Positions 5,695 to 34,665 of a stretch of 35,766 bases of DNA are shown piece after piece. The position numbers and the translations under genes are program-made. A model generated the notes under the pieces. That model was not told where the DNA came from and did not search any database. It was given only the letters and a program-made list of their open reading frames with translations. The stretch lies in assembly GCA_003151655.1 (NCBI GenBank), contig PLYB01000275.1:34320-70085 (forward strand). Reading direction: 5' to 3'. Origin of the DNA: Gallionellaceae bacterium. GTDB taxonomy: Bacteria > Pseudomonadota > Gammaproteobacteria > Burkholderiales > Gallionellaceae. Numbering within the stretch: position 1 is the first letter of the stretch; each line of letters opens with the position of its first letter.

Positions 5695-5799
5695 TGCATA
5701 TCTTACAGCGCAGAATTAGCACTGCATACACAGGTTGATCCCGAAATTCAATAAATTCGTGCGCTGTGCAAAAAATAACCAGCAGTGATACTATGGGTC

Positions 5800-8280: not shown

Positions 8281-8374
8281 TATTCTGCCTCCTGGTTTCT
8301 TAAATATCACTTAGGGTGCGATTCATAGAGGTACATCTTACACCAGATACGGGGTGCATTTTTCAACCTTGCGC

Positions 8375-9061: not shown

Positions 9062-9087
9062 CGATTCGGATGCGGTGGATGCATTCT

Positions 9088-9492
9088 TTATTCAATGCGT
9101 TGCTTCTTCAAAAATGCTGCCAGCGCACCATCCATCATGGCCAGGTGCGTGTCGAACCATTCGGGCAATCCTTCGCGTACGTAGGCACGTACTAACGGCA
9201 ATCGGCCTCGTTTAAGGCTGCGGTTGAGTTGTTGCAATTCACCGAGTACGCGGTGGTGCTCGCCTTCATGCACACCCAGCCCTTGATATTTTGCATCGCG
9301 CATCAGTTTGCCCTCGGCGATGAAGTGTTCGCGGGTATGGGTGACTAGCGTTTGAAACAAAAAAGGGAAGTCGGCATCGCTGGCGGCGATGAGCGCGGCA
9401 ACTTGGGCGATGAAGTCGCGATGTGCGCCATCGATTTCATCAACGCCTAAGTTGTGACGGGATTCGTCCCAAATTGCCTGATACTTGCTCAT
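9088..9492 (-). CDS. Hemerythrin-like metal-binding protein
   Basis: 134 aa from the ATG at 9492. Ligand pattern: H in GAHRDF, HTREHFIAE, HEGEHHRV, and HLAMMD. Its ATG overlaps the stop of the upstream SIR2-like gene (ATGA). The ORF-track extension to 9624 overlaps that gene. Confidence 0.8.
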   Translation of the reverse strand: MSKYQAIWDESRHNLGVDEIDGAHRDFIAQVAALIAASDADFPFLFQTLVTHTREHFIAEGKLMRDAKYQGLGVHEGEHHRVLGELQQLNRSLKRGRLPLVRAYVREGLPEWFDTHLAMMDGALAAFLKKQRIE

Positions 9493-10349
9493 GCCGCTGC
9501 GAGGCTGCCATTCCACGCTTGTGCGGCGGTGAGAAAATCTGCCACGTCGGCATTCACGATCTCGACGTTGAGCCTGTCCAGATAACGTTTTTCTTTGTCG
9601 GTCGGATGCGGGATAAGCGCCCACCCTGCGGGCTTGTCTGCGCCGAAGATGACATCGGAAAATACCATACGGTCAGTATCGCGATTGAGGCGCAGGCCGA
9701 GCAACAGGTAGCGTTTATTCTGGCGAGAACGTTTAACAAATGAGGGGATGGCGAACCCGCCCATCAGCTCGGTGATGTAATCGACGAAGTCGGCATCCGA
9801 CGCGATGTAGTTTGATTCCGGCAGCGGCGAGCCGAGCGGCTTAAACAGAATTGGCAGGCTGGTATCAACTGCCTCATGTTCAACGGCGGAGTAACTCGTG
9901 CCATCGTATTTGTAGATACGGAAGCGATACTCTTTTCCGGACATGCGCGCGATGCCGACGATCAGTGTGTGCGGCGTGGCGGCATATTGTTTCTGCAATT
10001 GCGTGTCACGATTGGCATCGATGATGTAGGGCAACTTTTGCTGACCGAGCCATTCGTGCAGAGAAGATATGCTCCACGGCGTATCGCGATAAGTGGCATC
10101 GAGAAACTTGGTGATTGCCGAGCGTCCGCGCTTCAGTTCCACATTCATCGCCGCACGCGGAAATTCGTACATCAGCTTGGGAGCCATCGGCTGACCGTTG
10201 TTCATCGCCAGAATCAGACTATCGCTGTCGGCGGGGATGGCTTTGCCGCTTTCCGGGCAGATCACACCATTAAGAGCTCCGGGGCCGAGATAGGGAATGA
10301 CGCTGCCATCGGCAAGGCCGGTGAAGATGTTTTCGAACCGTGGATTCAT
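9489..10349 (-). CDS. SIR2-like (SIR2_2-type) domain protein
   Basis: 286 aa with a GAGGAG SD. The motif order YLGPGA / IIDANRD / LFKPLGSP / YLLLGLRLNRDTD parallels the SIR2-like layout GAG / TNYD / KLHGS / LGxSxxD. The usual His position reads Leu. Assignment is by eye only. Confidence 0.55.
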   Translation of the reverse strand: MNPRFENIFTGLADGSVIPYLGPGALNGVICPESGKAIPADSDSLILAMNNGQPMAPKLMYEFPRAAMNVELKRGRSAITKFLDATYRDTPWSISSLHEWLGQQKLPYIIDANRDTQLQKQYAATPHTLIVGIARMSGKEYRFRIYKYDGTSYSAVEHEAVDTSLPILFKPLGSPLPESNYIASDADFVDYITELMGGFAIPSFVKRSRQNKRYLLLGLRLNRDTDRMVFSDVIFGADKPAGWALIPHPTDKEKRYLDRLNVEIVNADVADFLTAAQAWNGSLAAA

Positions 10350-10386
10350 TTGGTTAACTCCTCAGGGTAACTATTGTGAGTTACCT

Positions 10387-10402
10387 TGCAAAAATCGCGC
10401 CA
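10387..10402 (-). promoter_or_regulatory. Candidate sigma54 (-24/-12) promoter for the SIR2-like/hemerythrin unit
   Basis: The minus strand reads TGGCGC-GATTT-TTGCA, against the consensus TGGCAC-N5-TTGCA. Spacing is exact. The site is 38 nt upstream of the ATG at 10349. Confidence 0.6.
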
Positions 10403-10495
10403 TATCGTTAATCCAGTATTAACGAGGGATGCGGCTTGGTGCGGCTTGGAGCAAATGCGACAAAGTTATAAATCTTGTCGTGTGCAGGTATCTAG

Positions 10496-10562
10496 GTAGG
10501 GGCGTATGGCAATACGCCTTATCACGGTGCGCAACGAAGGGCGTATTGCCATACGCCCCTAC
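10496..10562. repeat. Perfect 23-bp inverted repeat (REP-like or terminator-like) just downstream of draT
   Basis: gtaggggcgtatggcaatacgcc (10496-10518) is the exact reverse complement of ggcgtattgccatacgcccctac (10540-10562). Confidence 0.85.
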
Positions 10563-10566
10563 GATT

Positions 10567-11469
10567 TTAATACGCCGCAATGCTCACTTCATACAATCCG
10601 CCAATCACCGTGTATTCATCTTCGCCTTGCAGCATGCCGGGCAGCAATTGCGTGTGGCAGAATATTTTGGCAAGCGGTACTTGCGCGGTTAGCAGGTAGT
10701 CACCGAACTCATCGGCACGTTCTCGGTTGGCGGTGAAGGAACTCAGATTATTGAACAGCACGACACGGTTTTTGTTATCCAGCGTTGCCAGCGTCTCGTA
10801 GTCGTCTACGCTGTTTACACCGCGATATAAGGTGAGATGAGTCCTGTCTAGTTGCTGCTTGACTAGTTCATATTGGCAATATGAATAGAGTAAATCGAAC
10901 TGTGCTTCAACTGCGTTGGTGCCATACAGCGCGGTGGCGCGCATCTCCAGATAACGTCGATAGGCATCCCCGGAAAAGTCGCGTATCGGCCCGGCGTGAT
11001 GTCGTGGTAGCAAACCGAAACGCGACTCTACCCAGCCCTTGAGTGCGGCACCTTCGCTGCCATCTGCATCAAATCCCCAGCCGCGCATCATGCGCAAGTA
11101 ATCCGCTTTTTGTCGCTTGTTAGTGGTTTGTGGCGAGTAACCGGCCTGCTCCGGCTGGTCGAGATAGAACGCGGCATTCATGTGCAAAGTAAAAGCTTGC
11201 GCGCGTTCACTGGCATCGTCAAGGCGATCCAGCAACGAGAATAAACCCTGATGAAATTGGGCTACGCCGTCGAGTTCGAGCGCTACAGGCGCGCGTTGAA
11301 AAGTGAGTCCGCCCAAGATGGACGCAGGCAGATTGCAGCGATTGATCGGTAGGCGTGCGCTGCGCGGTAATTGCAGCGACGAAGTTGTAGTCACTGCGAC
11401 AAAGCAATCTGTTTTGTTGTGTTCCACTTCCGCCAATGGATTTTGAGCTGAATTATTTTTCTCTGGCAT
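10567..11469 (-). CDS. draT: NAD+--dinitrogen-reductase ADP-D-ribosyltransferase (DraT)
   Basis: LKGWVESRFGLLP, FDLLYSYCQYEL, HLTLYRGVN and GEDEYTVIGGLYEVS match remembered DraT blocks. The gene is divergent from nifH, as in Rhodospirillum and Azospirillum. Confidence 0.85.
   Translation of the reverse strand: MPEKNNSAQNPLAEVEHNKTDCFVAVTTTSSLQLPRSARLPINRCNLPASILGGLTFQRAPVALELDGVAQFHQGLFSLLDRLDDASERAQAFTLHMNAAFYLDQPEQAGYSPQTTNKRQKADYLRMMRGWGFDADGSEGAALKGWVESRFGLLPRHHAGPIRDFSGDAYRRYLEMRATALYGTNAVEAQFDLLYSYCQYELVKQQLDRTHLTLYRGVNSVDDYETLATLDNKNRVVLFNNLSSFTANRERADEFGDYLLTAQVPLAKIFCHTQLLPGMLQGEDEYTVIGGLYEVSIAAY
11386..11401 (+). promoter_or_regulatory. NifA upstream activator sequence (TGT-N10-ACA)
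   Basis: TGTagtcactgcgACA lies about 100 nt upstream of the nifH -24 element, inside the 5' end of the draT coding region. Confidence 0.6.
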
Positions 11470-17511: not shown

Positions 17512-17802
17512 CTACGCCCGCCCCGCCAACGTTTCCATCACGAGCTGAGGATTGCGCTCAACCAGTTGGAGTAACGCCATTGCCGGGCCGTGAGGCTGAC
17601 GGTCGCCGCGTTCCCAATGACGCAGGGTATTCACACTGATATGGCAGCGTGATGCAAACTGTTCCTGAGTCATGCCGGTTTTCTGCCGAATGCCCTTCAC
17701 GTCGGGCACGTGGGGGCGATGTATTACGGCCTCTACCGGCTCGCCTGCAGCATGGGCTATGGCTTGCTCCAAGCCCTCTCGAATACGGTCAAATGCTTTC
17801 AT
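17512..17802 (-). CDS. HTH (Xre/NadS-type) antitoxin
   Basis: 96 aa. ...IRQKTGMTQEQFASRCHISVNTLRHWERGDRQPHGPAMALL is an Xre-type HTH. Its ATG overlaps the stop of the upstream toxin gene. Confidence 0.85.
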   Translation of the reverse strand: MKAFDRIREGLEQAIAHAAGEPVEAVIHRPHVPDVKGIRQKTGMTQEQFASRCHISVNTLRHWERGDRQPHGPAMALLQLVERNPQLVMETLAGRA

Positions 17803-18161
17803 GGGTTTCTCTCCAGTGCTGTAGTGACGAGAGTGTCAACCAAGGTGGCCAGCATATTACGTTCTCTCGCAGTTAAATTCGCTTGTTCATTTTTCGCAAA
17901 CAGGGTTAGCAAGTACAGCGGCAATCGTTCGTCATGAAAGTAGTAAATCACCCGTACGCCGCCGCTTTTACCTCGCCCACCTTTGCCCCAGCGCAACTTA
18001 CGCACCCCACCAGTACCCCGCATGACATCACCAGCCTTGGGATGCTCTGCCAGATAGTCAATGATCCCTTGACGCTCTTCCGCAGACAGATGCTTTTCTG
18101 CAAAAGAGATATAGGCTGGCAATTCAGCGATGGTGTTCAACATTCGGGCATTGTAATCCAT
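17799..18161 (-). CDS. RelE/HigB-superfamily toxin
   Basis: ...GDVMRGTGGVRKLRWGKGGRGKSGGVRVIYYFHDERLPLYLLTLFAKNEQANL is typical of this toxin family. Toxin-first order as in higBA. The start is either ATG 18161 or ATG 18143. The ORF-track extension to 18263 runs antisense into repeat copy B. Confidence 0.8.
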   Translation of the reverse strand: MDYNARMLNTIAELPAYISFAEKHLSAEERQGIIDYLAEHPKAGDVMRGTGGVRKLRWGKGGRGKSGGVRVIYYFHDERLPLYLLTLFAKNEQANLTARERNMLATLVDTLVTTALERNP

Positions 18162-18193
18162 TGGACTAGTTTGGCGCAAAAGATATTTATCGG

Positions 18194-18382
18194 CTACGAC
18201 TCTCCAACGCCGCTGATTCGATGAGCGTGTTGAACGACATGCCAGCGCGCCTGCCGCCCGCATTGAAGCGCGAAAAATTCAATCTCTATCTGGTCAATGG
18301 CAGTGAGCACTGCCTGAGCCTGACCGACGATTCGCTGCAGGCGATTGGGGTGGTGCTGGCAGAGGTGGATGAAGCCGTAGGC
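18194..18382 (+). pseudogene. Degraded copy B of the small nif-associated ORF
   Basis: By eye about 90% nucleotide identity to 17283-17424, with most differences at third codon positions. It lacks the roughly 60-nt segment encoding ATLAALKKTWPDLRFTLCNDD. The original stop is lost through a 1-nt indel relative to copy C. Confidence 0.6.
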
Positions 18383-18454: not shown

Positions 18455-18699
18455 CTACTCGTCTGCGGCCTGACATGCAGCAGCTATAACATTATCGGCG
18501 ATGAAGTAACCCGATGCGCGCAATTCCAATAAGCTGGGCCGCACACTGGAAATCAGACCACGGCGCCCGCGACCGCAACTTCGTTGAAAACCGTTTGAGG
18601 AATCCAGCATTCGACAAACAAAGCGGGCAACAGACCAAGCTGATCGAGCAATGATAGCGCGATCAGAGGCCCGGAGTTAACCACCGCTCGGTCAAGCAT
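18455..18699 (-). pseudogene. DUF3368-type PIN-like toxin remnant
   Basis: The N-terminal 48 codons (MLDRAVVNSGPLIALSLLDQLGLLPALFVECWIPQTVFNEV...) end in a premature stop. A C-terminal-like fragment (...ELRASGYFIADNVIAAACQAADE) lies in another frame. The total length is far below the full-length size I recall for this family (not verified). Confidence 0.6.
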
Positions 18700-18946
18700 T
18701 CTGGTCAAATTCCATGATCAGCTCATCGTCATCAAGAGATAGCACTGGCACACCGGCGCGCCCGGCAGCAAGGAGAAATTCAACCCGCCCCATATCGCAA
18801 AGTTTACCGGCCTTGCCGGAACTCAAACGGCCAACCTCGAACAGCTTCAGCGCCAGCATGAACTTAGCCTCGCTCGCCAGCGATTCTGGTGAAACTCCGG
18901 GAGATGCCAGCGCATCTATAGGTAATTCAAGCATAACGGAATTCAT
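18692..18946 (-). CDS. UPF0175 family antitoxin
   Basis: 84 aa. ...EAKFMLALKLFEVGRLSSGKAGKLCDMGRVEFLLAAGRAGVPV is the UPF0175 signature. Its stop overlaps the ATG of the toxin remnant. Confidence 0.8.
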   Translation of the reverse strand: MNSVMLELPIDALASPGVSPESLASEAKFMLALKLFEVGRLSSGKAGKLCDMGRVEFLLAAGRAGVPVLSLDDDELIMEFDQNA

Positions 18947-22211: not shown

Positions 22212-23282
22212 CTAATTTCCTTGTGGATGAGACATCTTTAACCAGTTGGCATTGAAGTATTCAGGAATGGCACCCGGTGTCATTTCCGCGCGACTGCCAA
22301 TCGGGCAAGCTGCGCTGTCGATCTGGTGCAGCCATTCTCTAAAGCGCAGCATGCTCACCGGATTCATCACGCATGATTTTTGGCCGAAGGGATGGCCGAA
22401 TTGAAACAGCATGTGCCCGATCTCGTGCGCCAGATAAGCTCCCGACAATTCGGCGGCTTCCTCATCCGAATATGTTTCACCACCGCGTAACAGCTTGGTG
22501 TGCTTTGAACTGTCTTGAAACGGAAATGTGCTCCAGACGATATAGGTACCGAATTTGCTGTTGCGGCTGTAGGTGGTTAAGCCAACCGTGACACCGCCGC
22601 GAATTGCGGTATGGATATCAACGCCGACGTATTCTGCGCTGGCAAAAAGTTGATTTGTAATCACTAACTCATAAGGAAGATTGCCATAACCCAAAATGTC
22701 CCAATAAGTAATTTCGTTGTAGGGCGTGGCATCAAGCACCGGTGCACCGTCAGCCGCTTTAACAGTGCGCCATCCTTCCAGTCTTTCCAGCATCACATCC
22801 GACAGTAATTCAGAAAATGACCCCAAGTCTGTTGCATGTGCACCCGGTAGATAGGGTTTTACATAGGCAAGCCCGTCTTGCCATTTGGTTCCTCGTTCGG
22901 TGAGCGTGGTGTTGATTCCCTTGGTGAGTTTTTTCTTGTCGCCCGTACCGGATTTAAAGTCGTAGATGGAAGATTTTCGCAGCTCACCAAGTTGCGGCGG
23001 TATGAGCGCAAATATTTGCGCTATCCCCGTTTCCGCAACTTCGGTGAATTCGACATTGACACCGAAATTTTTCTTAACGGTTGCCTGGGCAGAAGCCAGC
23101 ATGATACGAATTTGCTCGGGAGACATCCGCGCCAGACGCTCGTTGTTTGCGTTGACGACGCGAATTTGAACTGTAGCGCCGGGCTTGGCGGAAGTGAAAG
23201 GTGCTTTCTGCCATTTGCCGCCAAATTCCTGACAGCCGCATAGCAGCATGACAATTACTAAACAAAGGTACTTAACTCGCAA
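22212..23282 (-). CDS. Lipoprotein with zinc-metallopeptidase-like motif
   Basis: TTG start preceded by GGGGAG. Lipobox LLCGC. HEIGHMLFQFGHPFGQKSCVM resembles the archaemetzincin-type motif HExxHxxGxxH...CxM. Confidence 0.6.
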   Translation of the reverse strand: MRVKYLCLVIVMLLCGCQEFGGKWQKAPFTSAKPGATVQIRVVNANNERLARMSPEQIRIMLASAQATVKKNFGVNVEFTEVAETGIAQIFALIPPQLGELRKSSIYDFKSGTGDKKKLTKGINTTLTERGTKWQDGLAYVKPYLPGAHATDLGSFSELLSDVMLERLEGWRTVKAADGAPVLDATPYNEITYWDILGYGNLPYELVITNQLFASAEYVGVDIHTAIRGGVTVGLTTYSRNSKFGTYIVWSTFPFQDSSKHTKLLRGGETYSDEEAAELSGAYLAHEIGHMLFQFGHPFGQKSCVMNPVSMLRFREWLHQIDSAACPIGSRAEMTPGAIPEYFNANWLKMSHPQGN

Positions 23283-23384: not shown

Positions 23385-24056
23385 TTATCTTCGTAAAGTG
23401 AAATTAATGGGAACAATCACTGCGGCGGCAACCGCCTTACCATCTTGGCGAGCTGGAACGAACTTCCAGCGCCAAACGGCATCTATCGACGCTTGGTCAA
23501 GATGGGGAAACCCGCTGCTACGGTAGACTGTCACTGCGTTTGGGCGACCATCTTCGGTGACGAGGATGCGCAGGATGACACGGCCTTCTTCTACTTGTAT
23601 TCTGGACTCTTGTGGATATTCTGGAGCCGGGTTGGACAAATAGTCAGTATCGAACCGAGGCGAGACCACCGCGCCTTGTGGTACGGGTGTGTTCACCGTA
23701 TCCTGTGTATTACGCATAGTCTGTGTCACTGCGACCGATGAAGAAGGGGATTCATTTGCCAGCAATATCGGTAGCGGCTGTGGCTCGGCACGGTGCAGAT
23801 CGTCGCGCAAGAGCTGCGGCTTGGGCACCCTTTTAAATTTTGGTGTTGAGGCCAATGGATTAGCTTGCGCTGCCTTCAGTAAGACGACACCGAGAGCGCG
23901 GGGTGGCCTATCGAGTTGGCGGTGAGGGGTAAATTCAGCCAGCAATAAAAACGCGAGCACATGGATTAGTAGGGCTATCGCCAAACATATAAGCAATCGA
24001 TAGCGTTCATTGCCCGATGAGTGTCCAATTGGGAAAACTGGCTCTAAGGTTTTCAT
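23385..24056 (-). CDS. tonB: Energy transducer TonB
   Basis: N-terminal anchor (LLICLAIALLIHVLAFLLL), a Pro-rich linker and a C-terminal TonB domain (YPQESRIQVEEGRVILRILV...WKFVPA). The start at ATG 24056 is preferred over 24185. Confidence 0.75.
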   Translation of the reverse strand: MKTLEPVFPIGHSSGNERYRLLICLAIALLIHVLAFLLLAEFTPHRQLDRPPRALGVVLLKAAQANPLASTPKFKRVPKPQLLRDDLHRAEPQPLPILLANESPSSSVAVTQTMRNTQDTVNTPVPQGAVVSPRFDTDYLSNPAPEYPQESRIQVEEGRVILRILVTEDGRPNAVTVYRSSGFPHLDQASIDAVWRWKFVPARQDGKAVAAAVIVPINFTLRR

Positions 24057-24295
24057 TCGCTGCCCACGATGTTTAAAGCCGTCACAGCATAGACTTATCA
24101 AAGTACGCCAGCCAAGGTACTGGTTATTTCGGAGGACGGTGTGCTTCATCACAAGCCTTCTTTTGTCATCACGAATGAATGGCAATCAAAACCTACTGAG
24201 CCTTGCCGCGCTGGACAAAGGCTCTGCGTGGAGTTCAAAAGCAATTGGCCTGTTACACGGTTTCTATAATTCGCCGAGAAACTTTCCCCTTTCGT

Positions 24296-25645
24296 TCATA
24301 GCGACTCAAGAAATTTAAGCAATGCTCGTCTATCGGGCACAGTCATGTCCTTTACTGCCCGTGCAGCTTCAACTCCTTCACCGTCATGCCACAAAACGGC
24401 TTCAAGCAAGTTTCTGGCGCGACCATCGTGTAGAAATCCTGCGCGAGGCTCGACCTTTTGTGCGAGGCCGATTCCCCATAATGGCGGTGTGCGCCATTCG
24501 CGGCCTGTTGCCAGATAGTCTGGACGCTGATCGGCAAGTGCATCACCCATGTCGTGCAGTAACAGGTCGGTGTAGGGATGGATGGTTTGGCGTGTCAAAG
24601 TCGGATAGCTTGGAAAGTTGGATGTTTTCAATTCCGATACATGGCAGGCGGCACACTGCGCTTGTTTGAATAACAATGCACCGCGTTTTACATCGGTATT
24701 TTCAACGTTACGCTGACGCGGCGCAGCCAAGGAAAAGTGATAGAATTCAGCGGCATCCAGTTGTTCTGTACTTAGTTCCGGCTTTCCGGCAGAAGGGGAT
24801 TGCTGGCAAACTATTTGAGCTTCCGTGCAATTTTCCTGTGGAAATAGTGGTGATGTGATGCCCATGTCACCTACAAATGCTCCGGCAATTTGCTGCCGCA
24901 GATTAGGCATATTGGCTTTCCATCCGAAGCGACCCAATACAGTTTTTTGCTGAACCACATCCCAGACACGATTGACTTTGCCTTTGATGCCCTTGGGTTT
25001 TGGCGTATCGACCAGTGCGACGATGTCTGCTTCCGATACGGCTTGAAGTAGCCCCAGACCAAAAATTGGCGGTGCGATGCGCGGCGATGTCAGCATGTCG
25101 AGTGAAAATTCTCCATAGGCCAGATCGACAAAGGTCAGGTTGGGTTTACGCAGCATGACCTGTTTACCGCCATTGAGTTTGATCGCTTGTTCGGTATAAC
25201 GCACTTCCGCTCTACCTTCACCGGGTACACCCGGTACACCGTTCTCATTTAATTGGCCACCGTAGGCAAGGTGCGGCTTGGGGCCACCATGCGCATCGGT
25301 GCCGGGAATACTCAAACGTACCAGCATCGAACGCATTGGTTCCTGCGGTGTAGCCGGAGCAAATCCGCGCCCGTTTCCGGCATGGCAGGCGATACACGAA
25401 ATACGGTTGTATAGCGGGCCGAGTCCCGAAATCTCGCGATTTTCACTGGGCGGAATAACCCAACTTTGCCGTACCAGAGCACGCCCTTTGAAAAATTTAG
25501 GGCGATCTGTTTCAGATAGTGCAGGCACGGGCTGGGTATAAGCTTCACGCGTGGCATCATCGGTGGTGATCAAAGATTCATCAGCGATTACCGGATGGCT
25601 CAGCGTCAAAGTGGCTATCAAACTGCATAAGTACAATGGTTTCAT
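24296..25645 (-). CDS. Di-haem c-type oxidoreductase (DUF1111-like)
   Basis: Signal peptide from ATG 25645. Two CxxCH motifs (CIACH and CAACH). Its ATG overlaps the stop of the upstream binding-protein gene. Confidence 0.75.
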   Translation of the reverse strand: MKPLYLCSLIATLTLSHPVIADESLITTDDATREAYTQPVPALSETDRPKFFKGRALVRQSWVIPPSENREISGLGPLYNRISCIACHAGNGRGFAPATPQEPMRSMLVRLSIPGTDAHGGPKPHLAYGGQLNENGVPGVPGEGRAEVRYTEQAIKLNGGKQVMLRKPNLTFVDLAYGEFSLDMLTSPRIAPPIFGLGLLQAVSEADIVALVDTPKPKGIKGKVNRVWDVVQQKTVLGRFGWKANMPNLRQQIAGAFVGDMGITSPLFPQENCTEAQIVCQQSPSAGKPELSTEQLDAAEFYHFSLAAPRQRNVENTDVKRGALLFKQAQCAACHVSELKTSNFPSYPTLTRQTIHPYTDLLLHDMGDALADQRPDYLATGREWRTPPLWGIGLAQKVEPRAGFLHDGRARNLLEAVLWHDGEGVEAARAVKDMTVPDRRALLKFLESL

Positions 25646-26919
25646 TTCTGGCTTCCCAATATTTCCTGCGCTAATTGTGTAGCCTGAGCATAATGCTTGG
25701 CGATGTCCGCATCCCATTGCTGCTCAATACTTTCTGAATGACTGTCGCGCCTGATGAATGAGTGTTGGAGATCATTGTCATTGACCTGAGCTAATGTTAG
25801 CGGTAGCCAATTGGCCTGACTGTGTGCGACTTTTAGTCGAGGATCGTCAGGGGCTTTTTGCTCGGCTTGATGAATCGTTACCCACATTGTTTTCAACGCT
25901 GCATGATGGCGAGTAATCAGCGCGTCGAATAATGCCCCGACAACTTCCTGCCGCGCTAAGCCGGATGCCATATCGTACTTGTAGGAAGCACGCTGCGCAG
26001 CGGCAAACGGATCGAAATAGCCATCCGGTTTGTGGGCATACACAGATGGTCGCACAGGCAATTTGCGGATGTCGGGATGGAACAAAATCTTTTGTCCCTG
26101 TTCTGACAGTACAAAATTGGCAAAAGCTCGCGCACCCTCAAGATGCGCAGCATCGTTAAAAATTGCAATGTGAGCCGGGGAATATCCAACCTTTTCAGGA
26201 TAAGCAAAGCGCAAAGGCTTGCCATTGGCAATCGCGGAAGTGGCAAAAAAATCTATGGTTGCGCCCACCGCTATTCGTCCACTGCCAACATCATCTGAAA
26301 TGAAAGCCGAACCGGCATCTGCCAAGCTGGCATTGGCGGCTACTTGTTCAAGAATGCTCCAACCTTGCTCCCAGCCATAGCCTTGCAGCAAAGTGTCAAC
26401 CAGCATAGGGGCATAACCAGTCTTGGACGGGATTGGAAAAGCAATATGACCGCTGAAAGCAGGTGAGGTCAGCGTCTTCCAATCAATCGGCACCGGCAAC
26501 CCCAAGCGATGCAATTCGCCTGGATTGTAGGCCATGCCGAATCCTGCTGTTTCGGTGGCGACATAGAAACCGTCAGGGTCGGAAATCTGAAATCCGCCGA
26601 TTACTTTCGGCAAGCCATTCAAGTCAATATCCAACTTACGGAATGCGCCTTCTTTTGCTAGTACAGCAAAATTGCGTTGCGCCGGAGTCCAGTACACATC
26701 AATTGCACCATGCGGCTGGTGCAGATAGGACATGGCATCTCTGGATTGCCGCCAGAGAATCTCAAGTTGGAATTGCGGATAGGCTTGCTCGAATGCCGCC
26801 TCGAATTGCGTAACGACTTCCTGCGGATAGCTGGTCAACACCACTACCTTTTCAGTGGCGCTGGCCAGTTGCGACAACAACAAAAGCACTACTGAAACGA
26901 TCCATATAATCTGCGTCAT
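25642..26919 (-). CDS. Periplasmic solute-binding protein (family-1 type) with C-terminal extension
   Basis: Signal peptide MTQIIWIVSVVLLLLSQLASA. Type-II SBP-like body (KVVVLTSYPQEV...) plus a helical tail of about 90 aa. No permease or ATPase is present in this operon. Confidence 0.7.
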   Translation of the reverse strand: MTQIIWIVSVVLLLLSQLASATEKVVVLTSYPQEVVTQFEAAFEQAYPQFQLEILWRQSRDAMSYLHQPHGAIDVYWTPAQRNFAVLAKEGAFRKLDIDLNGLPKVIGGFQISDPDGFYVATETAGFGMAYNPGELHRLGLPVPIDWKTLTSPAFSGHIAFPIPSKTGYAPMLVDTLLQGYGWEQGWSILEQVAANASLADAGSAFISDDVGSGRIAVGATIDFFATSAIANGKPLRFAYPEKVGYSPAHIAIFNDAAHLEGARAFANFVLSEQGQKILFHPDIRKLPVRPSVYAHKPDGYFDPFAAAQRASYKYDMASGLARQEVVGALFDALITRHHAALKTMWVTIHQAEQKAPDDPRLKVAHSQANWLPLTLAQVNDNDLQHSFIRRDSHSESIEQQWDADIAKHYAQATQLAQEILGSQK

Positions 26920-26949
26920 AAATATACTCCTGAAACATCAAGTGGCATT

Positions 26950-26991
26950 GGCGATACGGATAAGATTTTGTGTGCACGTATCCGAATCGCC
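26950..26991 (-). other. Intercistronic hairpin between the receptor and binding-protein genes
   Basis: ggcgatacggata and tatccgaatcgcc pair at 12 of 13 positions, with a 16-nt loop. Confidence 0.5.
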
Positions 26992-27007
26992 AAATGTTTT
27001 AACTACT

Positions 27008-29068
27008 TCAAAGGTGATAATTCAAAGCAATCTTCGCCGTGCGACCTGGCATCGGAAAACCTTGGGTAAGCTCGTAGTTTTGGTCGAGAAGGTTATAAAT
27101 TCCTCCATTGATCGACAGCTCTTTGCTTAGGTGCTCGGTAAAGCGTAGATTGGTAACCACACTACCAGCAACGGGTTCAAGACCGTTGGTAGTCGTTTGC
27201 AGGCTGCTATTTCCCTGAACATCGGCAGAAAATTCGACGGCATCAGAGGCGAGCCAAGTCACGCTAACCGCACCGCGATTGTTTGGTGTCCCCGTGGGTA
27301 CAAGACCTGCTGTTCCCAATGTTCTGTTGAGGTAGCTATAGTTAAAAGTACTCAACCAGTTTTGCGCCAGAGGTACCTTTAAGCTTAGATCCAGTCCGTT
27401 GTTGGTGGCTGTCCCTACATTTTGATTTTGAGATAGACCCGGCGAGACCGATACTGATTGAATAGCATTGTCGATTGAGTCCCAGAAAAGTGCCGCATCG
27501 TAGCTCGCAGAACCTAAACGACCAGCTACACCGATTTCACGGTTAAGTGCATGTTCCGGCCCAAGGCTTGGATTGGGAATAGAAGCGCCCAAGCTGTACG
27601 AATAGATATCTTTGATTCCCGGAAAGCGAGTTTTTTGGCCGATACCTGCACGTATGATGGGATCACCTGTGCCTAGTGAAGTCCCGAGATCTTGCTTTAC
27701 TGTGAGTTGCCAATTGTCAGCATCGGCAGGGCTTGCAATTGGCTGAGCCATTATTGCGGTATCTGCGTTGTTGGTGTAGCCTTGGGCTTGGTCGAATTCG
27801 TGACGATCATGGCGATAGCCCATCACCAGTTCAGTGGATTTACTTAGTTTCCATGTGTCCTCAATCCCCGCCGAATAAGTTCGAGCTTCAAAATTTAGCC
27901 AAGGGCTTTCATAGGGCTGTTTATTGCTAGGCAGTTGGACTTCTGTATGGACATCGTCCTTATAGAATCCGGCAACTTTGACAAAGTGCGCATTGCTAAC
28001 AGGTTCGCCTAGTTCAAGATTTACACCGCTGGAATGATCATCATACTGTGAATTAAAAGCATATGGCCTCGCAGTGGTGGTGTAACTGGCATTGTCGTAC
28101 GAATCAAGCTGGTTTATAAATTTGTCCAAGTAAACGCGTGATTTCAAATACCCCTCGCCAATACCTGTATTTCCAATGAAGTAATAACTTTGTTTGTCCC
28201 ACTGCGGCCAATCCCAGTAGGCTACTTTTTGTCCCGTGACAGTAGTATTTCCAGTATAGGGCGCATCTTGCTTTGTGCTATGAACAGTGTTTATGCCGAA
28301 GGCATACTCGTCTGTGGCGCGGGGGGTGAATCCGATTTTAAGATTGTAGTTTCCAACATCGCTGGCCGCGTTTAAACGCGTTCCCGCAGGTTGAGCAGCT
28401 ACTGGCGTGAAGCTACTTGAAAGTGGGAAGCCGGTGGAATTGTCGTAAGCAACCCCGCCCGTTATGTACCATTGGTCATTGATGCGACTGCCTAGCTGGG
28501 CGCTGCCAAAAGTTGAATTTATGCCATTCCGACCGCCGCTTATTCCCTCGCTTACATCCATTGTTAAAGGCTTGTCCGGACGCTTGGTAATGAGGTTGAT
28601 TGTGCCTCCCATATTATTGGGCCCATACATCAAAGAGCCCAAGCCTTTAGTTACGACTATTTCTGATAAGTTTGGTGTAAGCAGTCGGCTTAAATCCACG
28701 TTGCCATCATAAGGGACATAGATTGGAATACCATCGACGTTCAATGTCACTTGGTTTTGGTTGAATCCTCGTATGTACACCTGCGACTCGGATCTTTGTC
28801 CGGTTAAAGTCGGCGATATGCCTGTGACGTGAGACAGCGCTTGACCGACATCGAGAGTTTGATTGCTTTGCATGGATTGCTCGGTGACGGTTTCCTCGCT
28901 GAATCCTCGGGTGATGGTGGAAGGCTCCACTGAAGCATTGACTTCAATTTCTCCGAGTTGAAATATGTCAGAAGTGGCTGGGGTATCTGCGCCATGAGCA
29001 AAAGTCGAATATAAAAGTATCAGTGCGGCAACGGGGCGTAAACAAAATGAGCGAGGCAAGGTAGGCAT
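27008..29068 (-). CDS. TonB-dependent outer-membrane receptor
   Basis: 686 aa. Signal peptide, a plug region (QLGEIEVNA..., IYIRGF-type block VYIRGFNQNQVTLNVDGIPI) and long beta-barrel-like repeats. Confidence 0.9.
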   Translation of the reverse strand: MPTLPRSFCLRPVAALILLYSTFAHGADTPATSDIFQLGEIEVNASVEPSTITRGFSEETVTEQSMQSNQTLDVGQALSHVTGISPTLTGQRSESQVYIRGFNQNQVTLNVDGIPIYVPYDGNVDLSRLLTPNLSEIVVTKGLGSLMYGPNNMGGTINLITKRPDKPLTMDVSEGISGGRNGINSTFGSAQLGSRINDQWYITGGVAYDNSTGFPLSSSFTPVAAQPAGTRLNAASDVGNYNLKIGFTPRATDEYAFGINTVHSTKQDAPYTGNTTVTGQKVAYWDWPQWDKQSYYFIGNTGIGEGYLKSRVYLDKFINQLDSYDNASYTTTARPYAFNSQYDDHSSGVNLELGEPVSNAHFVKVAGFYKDDVHTEVQLPSNKQPYESPWLNFEARTYSAGIEDTWKLSKSTELVMGYRHDRHEFDQAQGYTNNADTAIMAQPIASPADADNWQLTVKQDLGTSLGTGDPIIRAGIGQKTRFPGIKDIYSYSLGASIPNPSLGPEHALNREIGVAGRLGSASYDAALFWDSIDNAIQSVSVSPGLSQNQNVGTATNNGLDLSLKVPLAQNWLSTFNYSYLNRTLGTAGLVPTGTPNNRGAVSVTWLASDAVEFSADVQGNSSLQTTTNGLEPVAGSVVTNLRFTEHLSKELSINGGIYNLLDQNYELTQGFPMPGRTAKIALNYHL

Positions 29069-29104
29069 TAATATTCTTTCCTAAAATAATTAAAGATTAA
29101 TTCG

Positions 29105-29126
29105 GTTATGTAAGTTGGTACATAAC
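29105..29126. promoter_or_regulatory. Candidate ModE operator (Mo-box)
   Basis: GTTATGTA-agttgg-TACATAAC is a perfect 8-bp inverted repeat with a 6-nt spacer, flanked by CG and GC. It resembles the remembered TATATA-N6-TATATA / CGTTAT...ATAACG ModE site. It lies 37 nt upstream of the receptor ATG. Confidence 0.5.
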
Positions 29127-29400
29127 GCTAAAACGTTTCAGCAAAGGGCGTGCCAAAGTCGTAGAGTGCGATGGCATGGGAGCTTTCATAATGTTGACCA
29201 ATAGCGTTGTAGCCTAAAGGTTGTAACGAATGCGCCAAATTGTTTTTAAGCCTACAAGGGAAAAGGATTTAGACGGGGGTTGCAAATAAATAACATTCAC
29301 TGAAATTCAGTCGCAGCCTGATATAGCAGGGGCGATGAATATTGTGGCATCGCTTTTGCTCAGCGTTAGGTTGTAGATAGTTATAACGAACGAGGTCATT

Positions 29401-30213
29401 ATGTCTCAATTGAATGTGAAGAAAACGAAGAATGAATCTAGTGTTGTCTCCACACTAAAAATAGCCAAAGGACGGCGCTGGGATCATTTAGAATTGTTGG
29501 AGCGTATCGACGTAACGGGTTCTATTACGGCTGCAGCGAGTGCGATGGGCATGAGCTACAAAGCGGCATGGGAAGCGGTGGAAAGTATTAATAATCTTTC
29601 CGAGCAGCCGTTGGTGGAGCGCAAGACTGGCGGGCAAAAAGGTGGCGGAACTACCCTCACCACTTATGGTCGCCGGGTAGCGGGGGCGTATCGGCGCTTG
29701 GAGCAGGAGCGTGAGCAAGTGCTCAAAAAGCTGGCTGAAGTGATGGACGACTTCGATGAGTATTACCATTTGATAAGGAGATTTGACATGAAAACAAGTG
29801 CACGCAATCAATTTCTAGGCAAGATCAAAAGCATCAAAATGGGTGCAGTCAATGCCGAAATAGTAATGGATATCGGAGGTGGTGATTCGTTGGCCGCAGT
29901 GATTACCAACGAGAGCGTAGATCATTTGGGACTCAAGGTGGGTACGGAAGCTTATGCTTTGATCAAAGCGCCTTGGGTGATCGTGACGACTTCCGAAGGC
30001 TTTAAGACCAGTGCACGCAATGAGTTGCACGGTAAGATCGCGCGTTGCCAGGAAGGCGCAGTGAATGGCGAAGTGATTATTGAGCTGGCAGGCGGTAAGT
30101 TTGTGGCGGCGGTGGTAACCAACGACAGTATCAAATCGTTGGGACTTAAAGAAGGTGTAAAGGCATGTGCGTTGATTAAAGCTTCGCACGTAATTTTGGC
30201 TGTTAATGCGTAA
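29401..30213 (+). CDS. modE: Molybdate-responsive transcriptional regulator ModE
   Basis: N-terminal GSITAAASAMGMSYKAAWEAVESINNLSEQPLVERKTGGQKGGG, plus two Mop/TOBE repeats that each begin TSARN. Confidence 0.9.
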   Translation: MSQLNVKKTKNESSVVSTLKIAKGRRWDHLELLERIDVTGSITAAASAMGMSYKAAWEAVESINNLSEQPLVERKTGGQKGGGTTLTTYGRRVAGAYRRLEQEREQVLKKLAEVMDDFDEYYHLIRRFDMKTSARNQFLGKIKSIKMGAVNAEIVMDIGGGDSLAAVITNESVDHLGLKVGTEAYALIKAPWVIVTTSEGFKTSARNELHGKIARCQEGAVNGEVIIELAGGKFVAAVVTNDSIKSLGLKEGVKACALIKASHVILAVNA

Positions 30214-30224
30214 AAGAGCGGGAA

Positions 30225-30992
30225 ATGGAATTGCGTAAATCTCATCGGTTGGTTTTGCTTGGCGCATTGCTCTTTGGAACAATGATTCGTTCGGTGTATG
30301 CCGGTGAGGTTAACGCAGCCGTAGCGGCAAATTTTACCGCGCCAGTGCAACAAATCGTCGCGCTGTTTGAAAAAGAAACCGGAAATACGGTGAAACTTTC
30401 TTTTGGTTCCAGCGGCAAGTTCTATTCACAAATTAAGGAAGGCGCGCCTTTCGATGTGTTCCTTGCGGCTGATGAAAAGAATCCCAAGTTGTTGGAGCAG
30501 GAAAGTCTGGCTGTTGCCAATACCCGTTTTGTTTACGCCTTGGGCAAGCTGGTGTTGTGGAGTGCAAAGCCGGGATTTGTCGATGACAAAGGTGCTGTGT
30601 TAAGCAAGGGCAGCTATAACAAACTTTCGTATGCCGATCCCAAGCTCGCTCCTTACGGCTTGGCGGCACAAGAGACTTTGCAAAAACTGGAACTGTGGGA
30701 CAAAGTGCAAAGTAAATTGGTGACCGGCGAAAGCATTACTCAGGCTTATCAATTTGCCGCGACGGGAAATGCCGAGTTGGCTTTTATCGCGTTGTCGCAG
30801 ATTACTAAAGACGGCAAGGTAACGGAAGGATCGTGGTGGGTTGTGCCGGAAAATTTGTATACGCCGATTAAACAAAGTGCCGTGCTGTTGTCTGCGGCAA
30901 AAGATAAAATAGCGGCGCAAGCATTCCTTGATTTTTTAAAGAGTAAAAAAGCAGCGGCGATTATTCGTAGTTTTGGGTATGAGTTGCCGTAA
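30225..30992 (+). CDS. modA: Molybdate ABC transporter substrate-binding protein ModA
   Basis: Signal peptide, then AAVAANFTAPVQQIVALFEKETGNTVKLSFGSSG. Confidence 0.9.
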   Translation: MELRKSHRLVLLGALLFGTMIRSVYAGEVNAAVAANFTAPVQQIVALFEKETGNTVKLSFGSSGKFYSQIKEGAPFDVFLAADEKNPKLLEQESLAVANTRFVYALGKLVLWSAKPGFVDDKGAVLSKGSYNKLSYADPKLAPYGLAAQETLQKLELWDKVQSKLVTGESITQAYQFAATGNAELAFIALSQITKDGKVTEGSWWVVPENLYTPIKQSAVLLSAAKDKIAAQAFLDFLKSKKAAAIIRSFGYELP

Positions 30993-31168: not shown

Positions 31169-31855
31169 ATGCAAACCCTAGACCCCTCCGACCTCCAAGC
31201 CATTTGGCTCACGCTCAAGCTAGCGAGCGTGGTCACTTTGTTGCTGCTGTTCATTGCCACACCGTTAGCCTGGTGGCTGGCGCACAGCCGCAAGTGGTAC
31301 AAAGGTATCGTGTCGGCAATGGTGGCGTTGCCGCTGGTATTGCCACCGACGGTGTTGGGCTTTTATTTGTTGTTGCTGATGGGACCGCAGGGGCTGGTGG
31401 GCGAACTAACCAGTGCGTTGCATCTGGGTAGACTGCCATTTTCTTTTGCCGGATTAGTGATCGGCTCTGTGCTGTTCTCAATGCCCTTCGCTGTGCAACC
31501 GATCCAAAATGCATTCGAAGCCATAGGTAAACGTCCGCTGGAAGTGGCGGCAACTTTGCGTGCAAACGCGTGGGATCGTTTTGTTAGCGTGGCGCTGCCA
31601 CTGGCTCGTCCGGGTTTTCTCACCGCAATCATTCTGGCCTTTGCCCACACCGTCGGCGAGTTCGGCGTGGTGTTGATGCTGGGCGGCAATATTCCGGGCG
31701 AGACGCGCGTGCTTTCGGTGGCGATTTACAACCACGTCGAAGCGATGGAATATGCTCCCGCGCATCTGCTGGCCGGTGGCATGGTGTTGTTCTCCTTCAT
31801 CGTATTGTTGTCGCTGTATCTTACGGGCGGCAAGGTGTGGAGAGTGACGCGATGA
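31169..31855 (+). CDS. modB: Molybdate ABC transporter permease ModB
   Basis: 228-aa membrane protein with an EAA-loop-like region (ATLRANAWDRFVSVALPLARPG). Confidence 0.9.
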   Translation: MQTLDPSDLQAIWLTLKLASVVTLLLLFIATPLAWWLAHSRKWYKGIVSAMVALPLVLPPTVLGFYLLLLMGPQGLVGELTSALHLGRLPFSFAGLVIGSVLFSMPFAVQPIQNAFEAIGKRPLEVAATLRANAWDRFVSVALPLARPGFLTAIILAFAHTVGEFGVVLMLGGNIPGETRVLSVAIYNHVEAMEYAPAHLLAGGMVLFSFIVLLSLYLTGGKVWRVTR

Positions 31856-33744: not shown

Positions 33745-33760
33745 TGTCACAATTGCTACA
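33745..33760 (+). promoter_or_regulatory. NifA upstream activator sequence (TGT-N10-ACA)
   Basis: TGTcacaattgctACA lies about 75 nt upstream of the -24 element at 33834. Confidence 0.6.
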
Positions 33761-33833
33761 AATGTCCTTCGCGCTAGTTCTAAAATTTATCTTATCTCTC
33801 GCTGTTATTGGCTTCCTGCTTAATCTGTCCAAC

Positions 33834-33849
33834 TGGCACGTTGGTTGCT
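33834..33849 (+). promoter_or_regulatory. sigma54 promoter of the LRV operon
   Basis: TGGCAC-GTTGG-TTGCT, 49 nt upstream of the ATG at 33898. Confidence 0.75.
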
Positions 33850-33897
33850 TTTGTCCATTAAAGATTTATTGCGGAGCGATGATTGAAAGTATTGGAT

Positions 33898-34665
33898 ATG
33901 TCGGAACGTCATTTCGAGGTGTCGCCGTTGACTGAAGTTATGCTCGCCGATTGCTCGGTTTGCCCGCATCGTGCATTATTGGCGGAAGGAAAATGCGTGC
34001 AGGGTGACATCTGCGTGACAGTTCATAGCGGGCGCCAGATCGACCGGTTTTTGCGGCGCAATCCGCAATTTGCGCCGGACTATTTGAACGACAGCTTCTG
34101 GGAGCGGCGTGCTATCGCCGCTCGTCACGCGCCGCTGGAGATGCTGCGGAACAGGCCGCGTGATGCGGATGAAGTTGTACGGCGCGTGCTGGCAAGCCGC
34201 TTGCCGATTGATGAGCTGGATGATTATTTGCATGACACTGATCGTGAAGTGCGCATGACGGTGGCCGCACGTATTGCGCCGGAATGTTTGACTGCTTTGC
34301 TTGGTGATGAAGATTATCTGGTACGCTTGCAAGTTGCCAAGCGTATGCCGCACGGACAGTTGCGCCGCATGGCGCATGACCCGGATCGCGAGGTGCGCAA
34401 GGAAGTGGCACGGCGCATGCCGCCTTTTGCCCTGAGCCTGTTGGCAAAAGACGAGGATGAGGAAGTGCGTCGCCTCGTTGTGTCGCGCATGTTGCCGGAT
34501 GACGCGGCGAAGATGTTGGCGGATGCCGATTGGGTGGTGCGTTTGGAAGCGGTGCAACGTGCGCCGGTGGAATTTATCACCGAGCTGGTGGACGATGATG
34601 AGCCTGATGTGCGTGCCGCAGTGCGGCAACGTTTGGATGAATTTTTGCAGGGGGACAACCAATGA
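33898..34665 (+). CDS. 4Fe-4S-binding leucine-rich-variant (LRV) repeat protein
   Basis: N-terminal Cys cluster (CSVCPHRALLAEGKCVQGDIC) followed by repeated D.D..VR...A.R. LRV motifs. The start is moved to ATG 33898. Confidence 0.85.
   Translation: MSERHFEVSPLTEVMLADCSVCPHRALLAEGKCVQGDICVTVHSGRQIDRFLRRNPQFAPDYLNDSFWERRAIAARHAPLEMLRNRPRDADEVVRRVLASRLPIDELDDYLHDTDREVRMTVAARIAPECLTALLGDEDYLVRLQVAKRMPHGQLRRMAHDPDREVRKEVARRMPPFALSLLAKDEDEEVRRLVVSRMLPDDAAKMLADADWVVRLEAVQRAPVEFITELVDDDEPDVRAAVRQRLDEFLQGDNQ

Follow-up and report, generated by a model that had tools for sequence, protein, structure and literature searches.

A TonB-dependent receptor operon beside modEABC in a Gallionellaceae nif region, with a predicted ModE operator and a NifA-type promoter, as a candidate system for molybdenum scavenging

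The morAB genes of Rhodobacter capsulatus require both NifA and RpoN for their expression and are repressed by the ModE-like proteins MopA and MopB through a Mo-box (PMC6925177), and in Azotobacter vinelandii the TonB receptor operons and modA2B2C2 have VnfA1-dependent sigma-54 promoters that respond to molybdenum (Mo) and vanadium (V) (PMC9542535). In the current report we describe a locus that recalls both of these cases, in the nif region of a Gallionellaceae bacterium (GenBank assembly GCA_003151655.1, contig PLYB01000275.1, positions 34,320 to 70,085 of the forward strand). Within this stretch of 35,766 nucleotides (nt), which as a whole is referred to as the window and whose own numbering is used below, an operon for a TonB-dependent receptor, a periplasmic solute-binding protein (SBP), a di-haem oxidoreductase (DHOR) and TonB diverges from modEABC, and the region between the two is predicted to contain a ModE operator, sigma-54 promoters and a NifA-type enhancer. 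Taken singly, such operators, promoters and receptors are commonplace; it is their combination on a Mo-linked operon that resembles the morAB and VnfA1 cases.

The likeness to R. capsulatus lies in a two-input logic, by which nitrogen fixation and low Mo would be required together, and in the placement of a transport operon within the nif region. MorABC, however, is an inner-membrane ABC system that has been studied by measurement, whereas the window offers a receptor, an orphan SBP, a DHOR and TonB under a control that is predicted. A. vinelandii, likewise a diazotroph, sets a sigma-54 promoter and an enhancer-binding protein over TonB receptors and a mod operon, but there the metal signal passes through VnfA1 and modA2B2C2 is reported to be, apparently, outside ModE control, whereas the receptor promoter of the window has a predicted ModE operator. 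The operator of E. coli modABC (CGTTATATT-N6-TACATAACG, as compared with GGTTATGTA-N6-TACATAACG in the window) is served by a homologous ModE and, like the window site, stands no more than a few tens of nt in front of the first ATG; it overlaps the transcription start of modA. The target in E. coli is an ABC transporter with a sigma-70 promoter, in contrast to a TonB receptor operon with a sigma-54 promoter and an enhancer. Non-iron TonB transporters that are under a metal regulator include ZnuD (Zur), FrpB4 (NikR), BtuB (the B12 riboswitch), the copper transporters OprC and NosA, and the lanthanide receptors, and here too the receptor for a scarce nutrient can be recognized by the regulator's site instead of a Fur box; the system predicted here would be a case of non-iron TonB transport placed under the cognate metal regulator.

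The evidence for ModE control begins with a perfect palindrome in front of the receptor gene, which an earlier, sequence-only reading of this DNA had noticed and likened to the ModE operator. Its 8-nt arms, GTTATGTA (29105-29112) and TACATAAC (29119-29126), are 100% complementary according to a repeat finder and enclose the spacer AGTTGG, and the pattern has a single match in the window even when 3 mismatches are allowed, with 0.04 matches expected from shuffles. The flanking CG (29103-4) and GC (29127-8) that had been pointed out are indeed there, giving CG-GTTATGTA-AGTTGG-TACATAAC-GC over 29103-29128, but they are not complementary to each other, and it is the right flank alone that yields the ...AACG of the consensus; between the palindrome and the receptor ATG (29068-29066) there are 36 nt. 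The site is identical at 13 of the 16 specified core positions to the E. coli ModE consensus ATCGNTATATA-N6-TATATANCGAT published by Rodionov et al. (PMC545781), and the inverted repeat CGNTATATA-N6-TATATANCG, by which membership was defined, is matched to the same extent (13/16).

Scoring with a ModE weight matrix, which the earlier reading had proposed as a check, was carried out with a matrix trained on 19 sites that precede mod genes (modE, mop, modA, modD) in related loci, receptor-proximal sites being excluded to avoid circularity. The window site reaches 17.7 bits, against a range of 10.7-27.0 bits for the training sites, and is the best match in the 35.8 kb, followed by one of 10.3 bits; when the intergenic region was shuffled with its dinucleotides preserved, 2 of 2000 shuffles attained this score. 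The E. coli K-12 modA operator, with which the earlier reading had compared the site and which is present in NC_000913.3 as CGTTATATTGTCGCCTACATAACG, 20 nt upstream of modA, served as a positive control and scores 19.6 bits, the top of its region; its arms are 15/18 identical to those of the window site and the right arm is the same in both. The ModE protein of the window is of full length, with a winged helix-turn-helix (wHTH) and two Mop/TOBE domains, and is 39% identical to E. coli ModE; both the recognition region (SYKAAWEAV, as compared with SYKSAWDAI in E. coli) and the TSARNQ motifs in the molybdate-binding Mop domains are conserved.

The divergent intergenic region of 332 nt that separates the receptor gene from modE also contains two exact matches to the sigma-54 promoter, one facing each operon, with a NifA-type enhancer shared between them; these elements had been overlooked in the earlier reading, and they place the ModE box downstream of the -12 element of the receptor promoter instead of ahead of a sigma-70 promoter. 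Exact matches to TGGCA-N6-TTGCW number only four in the window, all of them intergenic and in front of genes (this pair, nifH and a gene for a leucine-rich-variant (LRV) Fe-S protein), and the receptor promoter also agrees exactly with TGGCAC-N5-TTGCW, the form that specifies the -24 GG and -12 GC. The enhancer motif, TGT-N10-ACA, has 7 matches in the window, three of which lie 85-113 nt upstream of the four exact promoters; the match between the divergent genes is about 120 nt from each predicted start (119.5 nt from the +1 of the receptor). From the -12 GC at 29142-29141 the +1 of the receptor transcript is predicted near 29129, and hence the ModE box, which starts 13 nt past this GC, would cover about +3 to +25 of a 5' untranslated region of ~61 nt; the modE transcript is expected to begin at about 29372. 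No sigma-70-like promoter for the receptor was found on the minus strand of the intergenic region.

This arrangement is shared by relatives of the locus. When six promoters were aligned (the window, L001, L002, L003, L019 and L042, the last being that of Sideroxydans sp. CL21), the arms of the ModE box were found to be conserved and its spacer and flanks to have diverged, which is the classical footprint expected of a site for a dimeric regulator, and TGGCA-N6-TTGC was invariant. The arrangement of promoter and enhancer recurs in Sideroxydans CL21, L001, L003 and L019, with TGT-N10-ACA 86-131 nt upstream of the predicted +1 and with two tandem enhancers in L003 and L019; L002 has the sigma-54 element, and its TGT-N10-ACA lies farther away. 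The modE promoter has a conserved counterpart in L001, and Sideroxydans sp. CL21 has the identical sequence before its modE. We consider it likely that the predicted site at 29104-29127 is a conserved ModE operator through which the receptor operon would be repressed in a Mo-dependent manner, and the control of this operon by a ModE operator, a sigma-54 promoter and a NifA-type enhancer is, as a prediction, well supported in silico. The features concerned are listed in Table 1.

Table 1. Genes and predicted control elements of the receptor operon and of the adjoining modEABC genes (window numbering).
Feature	Position	Strand	Description
TonB-dependent receptor, 686 aa	27008..29068	-	Pfam Plug and TonB_dep_Rec_b-barrel; signal peptide, 22-strand-type barrel
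Periplasmic solute-binding protein (SBP_bac_6), 425 aa	25642..26919	-	cluster-D SBP fold with C-terminal helical subdomain
Di-haem oxidoreductase DHOR/DUF1111, 449 aa	24296..25645	-	PF06537, E = 1.7e-87; signal peptide, two CxxCH
TonB	23385..24149/24185	-	254 aa by gene caller (from 24149); longest ORF 266 aa (24185)
Lipoprotein with HEIGHxxxxxGH zinc-protease-like motif	22212..23282	-	possible fifth operon gene; membership uncertain
Predicted ModE operator 1 (strong)	29104..29127		GGTTATGTA-AGTTGG-TACATAACG; core palindrome 29105-29126
Predicted sigma-54 (-24/-12) promoter, receptor operon	29140..29155	-	TGGCACGCCCTTTGCT; exact TGGCA-N6-TTGCW
Possible weak second ModE-like site	29205..29228		CGTTGTAGCCTAAAGGTTGTAACG; adjoins enhancer; uncertain
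Predicted NifA-type upstream activator sequence TGT-N10-ACA	29241..29256		TGTTTTTAAGCCTACA; midway between the divergent promoters
Predicted sigma-54 (-24/-12) promoter, modEABC	29345..29360	+	TGGCATCGCTTTTGCT; exact match
Candidate weak ModE-like site, 7-nt spacing	29364..29388		CGTTAGGTT-GTAGATA-GTTATAACG; between modE promoter and modE ATG
modE	29401-30213	+	HTH_1 and two TOBE/Mop domains; NCBIfam ModE and Mop models match
modA	30225-30992	+	exceeds NCBIfam equivalog cut-off
modB	31169-31855	+	exceeds NCBIfam equivalog cut-off
modC	31837/31852-32940	+	exceeds NCBIfam equivalog cut-off

A scan with the receptor protein, taking one genome per species, returned 37 loci with 28-76% identity, which include Gallionellaceae-like and other betaproteobacteria with Thiomonas, Sulfuriferula and Methylobacillus, as well as Halothiobacillus, Thiomicrorhabdus, Hydrogenovibrio, a Francisella-like metagenome-assembled genome, Halarcobacter and Hyphomicrobium. 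A ModE box (at least 12/16 matches to the consensus, no more than 300 nt upstream of the receptor start) is present in 25 of the 35 loci in which it could be looked for, among the beta-, gamma- and alphaproteobacteria, as compared with a mean of 0.68 and a maximum of 3 in shuffled upstream regions, and many loci have two boxes that are 60-125 nt apart. In about half of the 37 loci modE, mop, modABC or modD lies within 8 kb of the receptor, a proximity that we estimate would befall ~0.5% of random positions in a genome of a few megabases. The more distant of these relatives do not have the sigma-54 element, which suggests that NifA control is a lineage-specific addition and ModE control the family trait.

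Isolate genomes, which were reached through homologues of the SBP and the receptor, give the clearest pictures of the linkage to mod genes. In Sideroxydans sp. CL21, modD-C-B-A-E is divergent from receptor-SBP-DHOR and adjoins nif genes, with a ModE box of 19.6 bits at -51. Methylotenera has a small HTH gene followed by receptor, SBP, DHOR and a ModA-like gene, the last four consecutive on one strand, and a box of 16.4 bits. In Methylobacter luteus (box of 28.1 bits) modE is divergent from a string of receptor, SBP, DHOR, mop and a modC-like gene, after which come an AlgE-like porin and modABC-mop. The AlgE-like gene of M. luteus (KE386569.1, L046, 15615-17231), an outer-membrane beta-barrel of Pfam Alginate_exp that heads the modABC-mop string, is itself preceded by a near-perfect ModE box (CGTTATATACTTATATATATAACG, 31.0 bits), and its product would be a second, TonB-independent candidate for an outer-membrane channel in the ModE regulon. 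Between the window and Sideroxydans CL21 (L042), the binding proteins are 80% identical and the ModE box, the enhancer and the promoter have been kept, yet the receptors (27008-29068 in the window, 7978-9990 in L042) share only 34% identity. Either a replacement of the receptor gene or a rate of change well above that of the other parts of the operon would seem to account for this, and a change of ligand or pressure from phages or bacteriocins may lie behind it.

The gene content that had been read from the window, four minus-strand genes for receptor, binding protein, di-haem protein and TonB in a nif setting, was borne out by Pfam and NCBIfam family scans, which covered the open reading frames (ORFs) of the window other than nifD, nifK and some overlapping ORFs. 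They identified rnfABCDGEH, draT and nifH, in addition to the LRV Fe-S gene; two large ORFs outside the scans are taken to be nifD and nifK by their size and position only. No convincing intrinsic terminator separates the four operon genes, and the start of the DHOR gene at 25645, from which a signal peptide and two CxxCH motifs are translated, overlaps the SBP stop in the ATGA coupling that had been described; the same overlap was called by an independent gene caller in metagenome scaffolds that carry an identical receptor, and in one database entry (P0083) the SBP and DHOR domains are fused. The binding protein had also been said to have no permease of its own, and among the ORFs scanned modB is the sole ABC permease.

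Both the signal peptide of the receptor and its TonB-box-like motif are conserved, the motif reading LGEIEVNA in the window and LGEVLVSA or LGQIVVVA in relatives. The protein does not reach the cut-off of any of the curated NCBIfam families of receptors for siderophores, haem or B12, the best scores being 105 vs 324 bits for TIGR01786, 101 vs 317 for TIGR01785 and 82 vs 600 for BtuB, and its nearest solved structures (BtuB, PhuR and CirA) match mainly over the plug region. The SBP belongs to a family of proteins of ~425 aa found in Sideroxydans, Gallionella, Methylophilaceae, Methylobacter and Oxalobacteraceae. Its AlphaFold model (pLDDT 92) shows a cluster-D SBP fold with a well-packed C-terminal helical subdomain of ~110 aa (residues ~317-421), so that the C-terminal extension claimed earlier exists and is longer than the 90 or so residues given for it; the neighbours of the SBP in the PDB, namely AfuA, VcA0625 (sugar-phosphate), P5PA (pyridoxal-phosphate), ferric binding proteins and a metal-citrate binder, span only the first 300-335 alignment columns. 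For the DHOR no solved relative is detectable by sequence.

From its association with mod genes, and from the absence of signals for iron or B12, we think it likely on balance that the receptor-SBP-DHOR-TonB operon is a Mo-scavenging system that belongs to both the ModE and the NifA regulons; the context points to a Mo (or tungsten, W) species, chelated or otherwise complexed, as its substrate. The operon would be transcribed from the sigma-54 promoter upon activation from the enhancer that is common to the divergent modEABC promoter, and molybdate-loaded ModE would bind its operator, where, given the position of the box just past the predicted start, open-complex formation or promoter escape should be blocked. 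Activation by NifA combined with repression by ModE would mean that the operon is made only during nitrogen fixation with scarce molybdate. The receptor would then import a Mo (or W) species that cannot use porins at nanomolar levels and that is most likely complexed, for example as a molybdophore or xeno-metallophore complex, a hydroxy-acid complex or thiomolybdate; the PgtC-like binding protein would capture the imported species in the periplasm, and the coupled DHOR would free molybdate by oxidizing the ligand or the complex. ModA and ModBC, expressed from the divergent promoter, would move the molybdate across the inner membrane, and their service as the inner-membrane step would explain an operon that has no permease.

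A different version of the gene set occurs behind ModE boxes in gammaproteobacterial loci of Halothiobacillus, Thiomicrorhabdus, Hydrogenovibrio and relatives (L014, L017, L020-L028 and L036), where the receptor is accompanied by a Peripla_BP_2 protein, a luciferase-like monooxygenase, a FecCD permease, an ABC ATPase and often ModD. This BtuF/FecB-type ABC importer and its monooxygenase might represent a cytoplasmic counterpart of the same import followed by oxidative release. In both versions the receptor is joined by a binding protein and by an oxidoreductase, which suggests a complexed substrate that needs chemical release, and we hypothesize that molybdate is released oxidatively from a chelate or from thiomolybdate. 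A broader proposal can be advanced only tentatively, as it is in our judgement rather less probable than the Mo-scavenging function of the window operon by itself. It holds that a family of ModE-controlled TonB receptors for complexed Mo may be the first recognizable outer-membrane leg of Mo acquisition, and that molybdate is set free by oxidation and not by reduction. In betaproteobacteria and methanotrophs this release would fall to a di-haem enzyme of the periplasm, together with a PgtC-like carrier; in gammaproteobacterial sulfur oxidizers an ABC system would first import the complex, and the luciferase-like monooxygenase would then act on it in the cytoplasm. In iron-oxidizing diazotrophs the family would have been wired to NifA. 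In some of the gammaproteobacterial loci there are, in addition, extra TonB receptors and a small protein with an Oxidored_molyb domain.

Several observations weigh against Mo scavenging. The SBP fold is common to ferric-ion and sugar-phosphate binders and is not specifically that of ModA, and the sole functional context for DUF1111/DHOR proteins in the literature that we searched is an operon with EfeO-like and DUF1513 proteins for which ferrous-iron uptake has been proposed (bioRxiv 10.1101/072470). The nifA gene is not in the window, so that the activator is deduced from the enhancer motif that the locus shares with the nifH promoter. Among the relatives, the receptor of Herminiimonas arsenicoxydans has modEABC 3 kb downstream and no recognizable ModE box upstream, and in the Oxalobacteraceae (H. 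arsenicoxydans, L043, and Janthinobacterium, L047) the triad of receptor, SBP and DHOR is divergent from an L-lactate-type major facilitator superfamily (MFS) transporter, a sigma-54 response regulator and a Cache-domain kinase, neighbours that hint at a different or additional control circuit and at a possible hydroxy-acid connection. Autoregulation of modEABC by ModE did not find support in the window: the site with 7-nt spacing in front of modE scores 11.9 bits for its arms alone, as compared with 12.4 elsewhere in the window, and is thus not clearly above background. It has been retained as a weak candidate because Sideroxydans sp. CL21 has an N6 version of it at the equivalent place (11.1 bits). 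Finally, enzymes that do not depend on Mo could be supplied with iron or with a substitute metal (W or V) by a transporter that ModE represses.

Gene sets of this kind are usually annotated as iron uptake, as the sequence-only reading had remarked: the homologues of the receptor all bear generic names or that of an iron complex receptor, and those of the SBP are labelled Fe3+ binding protein or, by one source, PgtC. A system switched on by NifA and fine-tuned by ModE might accordingly bring in iron for the synthesis of nitrogenase, be it ferric, ferrous and oxidized on entry, or siderophore-bound, with the DHOR oxidizing Fe(II) and an FbpA-like SBP binding Fe(III). To the annotations and the DUF1111 proposal can be added the match of the SBP fold to FbpA, HitA and FutA, the induction of the sigma-54/VnfA1-dependent TonB receptors of A. 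vinelandii when Mo and V are lacking (PMC9542535), and a cluster next to nif in Acidithiobacillus ferrooxidans, with genes for receptors, TonB and ModA, that Osorio et al. read as a combined supply of Fe and Mo (PMC2631029). The EfeO-like/DUF1111/DUF1513 operon does resemble the present one in that a periplasmic DHOR-family protein is paired with a periplasmic metal- or ligand-binding protein, but the partners in the window are a cluster-D SBP and a TonB receptor and the regulator is ModE; no EfeO-like/imelysin or DUF1513 Pfam domain was found among the window ORFs scanned, the neighbours of the DHOR being the receptor, the SBP and TonB.

The signals that would be expected of iron control or iron binding are, moreover, lacking at the places where they were sought. 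With the E. coli-type 19-bp consensus, the only one used, the intergenic region offers no Fur match better than 13/19, a score that 8% of shuffles also attain, and no match above chance was found in the window or in the 35 orthologous upstream regions (maximum 13/19), in agreement with the earlier statement that there is no convincing Fur box. Rfam searches of the window and six loci at gathering thresholds detected no cobalamin or Moco riboswitch and no member of any other family. In a profile alignment of the SBP to Moraxella FbpA (7li0), the Tyr-Tyr pair of iron ligands corresponds to Phe224-Phe225, which is invariant in the SBP family and argues against iron binding of the FbpA type; with this substitution, and with no permease besides modB among the scanned ORFs, an FbpA-like ferric binding function was set aside even though the fold matches. 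ModE boxes and mod linkage are conserved in three classes of proteobacteria, among them lineages that are not usually counted as diazotrophs, and in Methylotenera it is a ModA-like gene that follows the DHOR on the same strand. We consider iron uptake, on this evidence, to be rather unlikely.

Somewhat less likely still is the uptake of a substitute for Mo (tungstate, vanadate or a complex of either), derepressed by ModE once Mo runs out. The position of the operator does imply repression by Mo, and ModE-type repressors are known to shut down Mo-independent systems in the presence of Mo, as with anfA in R. capsulatus (PMC6925177); the induction of the A. vinelandii receptors under Mo- and V-free conditions (PMC9542535) could be read in the same way. 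However, the window has no vnf or anf genes and its nitrogenase reductase gene is nifH, and the receptor family is tightly linked to modABC, modD and mop and not to genes for tungstate (tup/wtp) or to vnf genes. The family also occurs in Halothiobacillus and Thiomicrorhabdus, which to our knowledge are not known as diazotrophs.

The PgtC label that one source gives to SBP homologues, together with the lack of a permease, raises the prospect that the SBP is the partner of a sensor and that the triad imports or senses an organic anion (an organophosphate or a hydroxy-acid), in which case its link to Mo would be regulatory or coincidental. Glucose-6-phosphate, pyridoxal phosphate and metal-citrate are the ligands of the nearest solved structures, and the neighbours of the triad in Janthinobacterium and Herminiimonas include a sensor kinase and a sigma-54 response regulator as well as an MFS transporter. 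Yet the Janthinobacterium transporter is of the L-lactate/oxalate-formate type and not PgtP, and the kinase and regulator match PgtB and PgtA weakly, far below cut-off, so that a genuine pgt system was rejected; no kinase or regulator adjoins the SBP in the window, and in Sideroxydans, Methylotenera and Methylobacter the triad has mod genes, and neither a kinase nor an activator, for neighbours. Even Janthinobacterium sp. Marseille, in which mod genes are not nearby, has a ModE box of 14.4 bits at -63. This explanation, which we regard as quite improbable, would still allow the ligand to be a complex of Mo with an organic hydroxy-acid. Although AT-rich inverted repeats are common in promoters, that the palindrome arose by chance or serves some unrelated regulator can hardly be entertained in view of its rarity in shuffled sequence, its top matrix score, the retention of its arms around a free spacer in six relatives and the frequency of such boxes upstream of orthologous receptors.

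Beyond the operator proper, the intergenic region holds the second-best ModE match of the whole window, the site of 10.3 bits that adjoins the enhancer; it is kept in L001 and not in L042, and the upstream sites that L003 and L019 have in the corresponding position are stronger. In these two loci (L003, 7824-7847; L019, 7823-7846) the upstream ModE-like boxes, for example CGGTGTATATAACACTACATAACG, enclose the TGT-N10-ACA motif, and ModE and the sigma-54 activator might there compete for one stretch of DNA. The LRV Fe-S gene (33883-34665) is preceded, within 33745-33849, by an exact sigma-54 promoter of its own, TGGCACGTTGGTTGCT, and by a TGT-N10-ACA enhancer 89 nt upstream, and is probably another member of the NifA regulon as predicted from these elements. 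The gene for the lipoprotein with a zinc-protease-like motif, which follows TonB in the window, is found directly after the DHOR in L001 (12899-13954, 79% identity) and is absent from this position in the other loci; its product belongs to no Pfam family, and the gene may have an accessory part in the operon that is confined to this lineage. Elsewhere in the window (8375-11469), draT (10567-11469, minus strand) is not followed by a recognizable draG and is accompanied by genes for a hemerythrin-domain protein (9088-9624) and a Se/Te-type thiopurine S-methyltransferase (8375-9061) and by an ORF of 286 aa with no family matches (9489-10349). Toxin-antitoxin-like pairs are dispersed in the nif region (5785-6455, 7709-8310, 17512-18263 and 18692-18946), their types being TumE-like with HVO_A0114/HTH, DUF5615 (PIN-like) with DUF433, RelE-like with HTH/MqsA-like, and a UPF0175 gene.

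In the full-text literature that we searched, no TonB receptor regulated by ModE or specific for Mo and no receptor-SBP-DHOR module is reported, although a prediction may exist in regulon databases, which were outside the scope of the search; nor is any outer-membrane receptor for Mo described there, even though the term "molybdophore" is in use. A comparative survey of Mo utilization from 2018 does not mention TonB or the outer membrane. Another case of outer-membrane crossing as a dedicated step in the supply of molybdate is the ModA that Pseudomonas aeruginosa secretes by its type VI secretion system (T6SS) and that docks on the outer-membrane protein IcmP (as cited in PMC11734730); in that account the parts are a secreted ModA and an imelysin-type protein, and no TonB receptor is involved.

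If the Mo-scavenging function predicted here is correct, the receptor family would be a likely, so far unrecognized and widespread route for scavenging Mo, and would supply the missing outer-membrane step of Mo acquisition. In many freshwaters and soils Mo is a limiting factor for nitrogen fixation and for the use of nitrate, and studies of metallophore physiology in Azotobacter have long argued that Mo is taken up bound to metallophores through Mo-regulated systems. The ModE-boxed receptors that lie among mod genes in iron oxidizers, sulfur oxidizers, methylotrophs and methanotrophs would now give such uptake concrete genes and proteins, and carriers are available in culture, among them Sideroxydans sp. 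CL21, Methylobacter luteus, Methylotenera, Halothiobacillus and Thiomicrorhabdus. As the genes now go under the names of iron complex receptor and Fe3+ binding protein, the finding would also correct a systematic error of annotation, and it predicts that ModE repression has been layered on sigma-54/NifA promoters outside of Rhodobacter.

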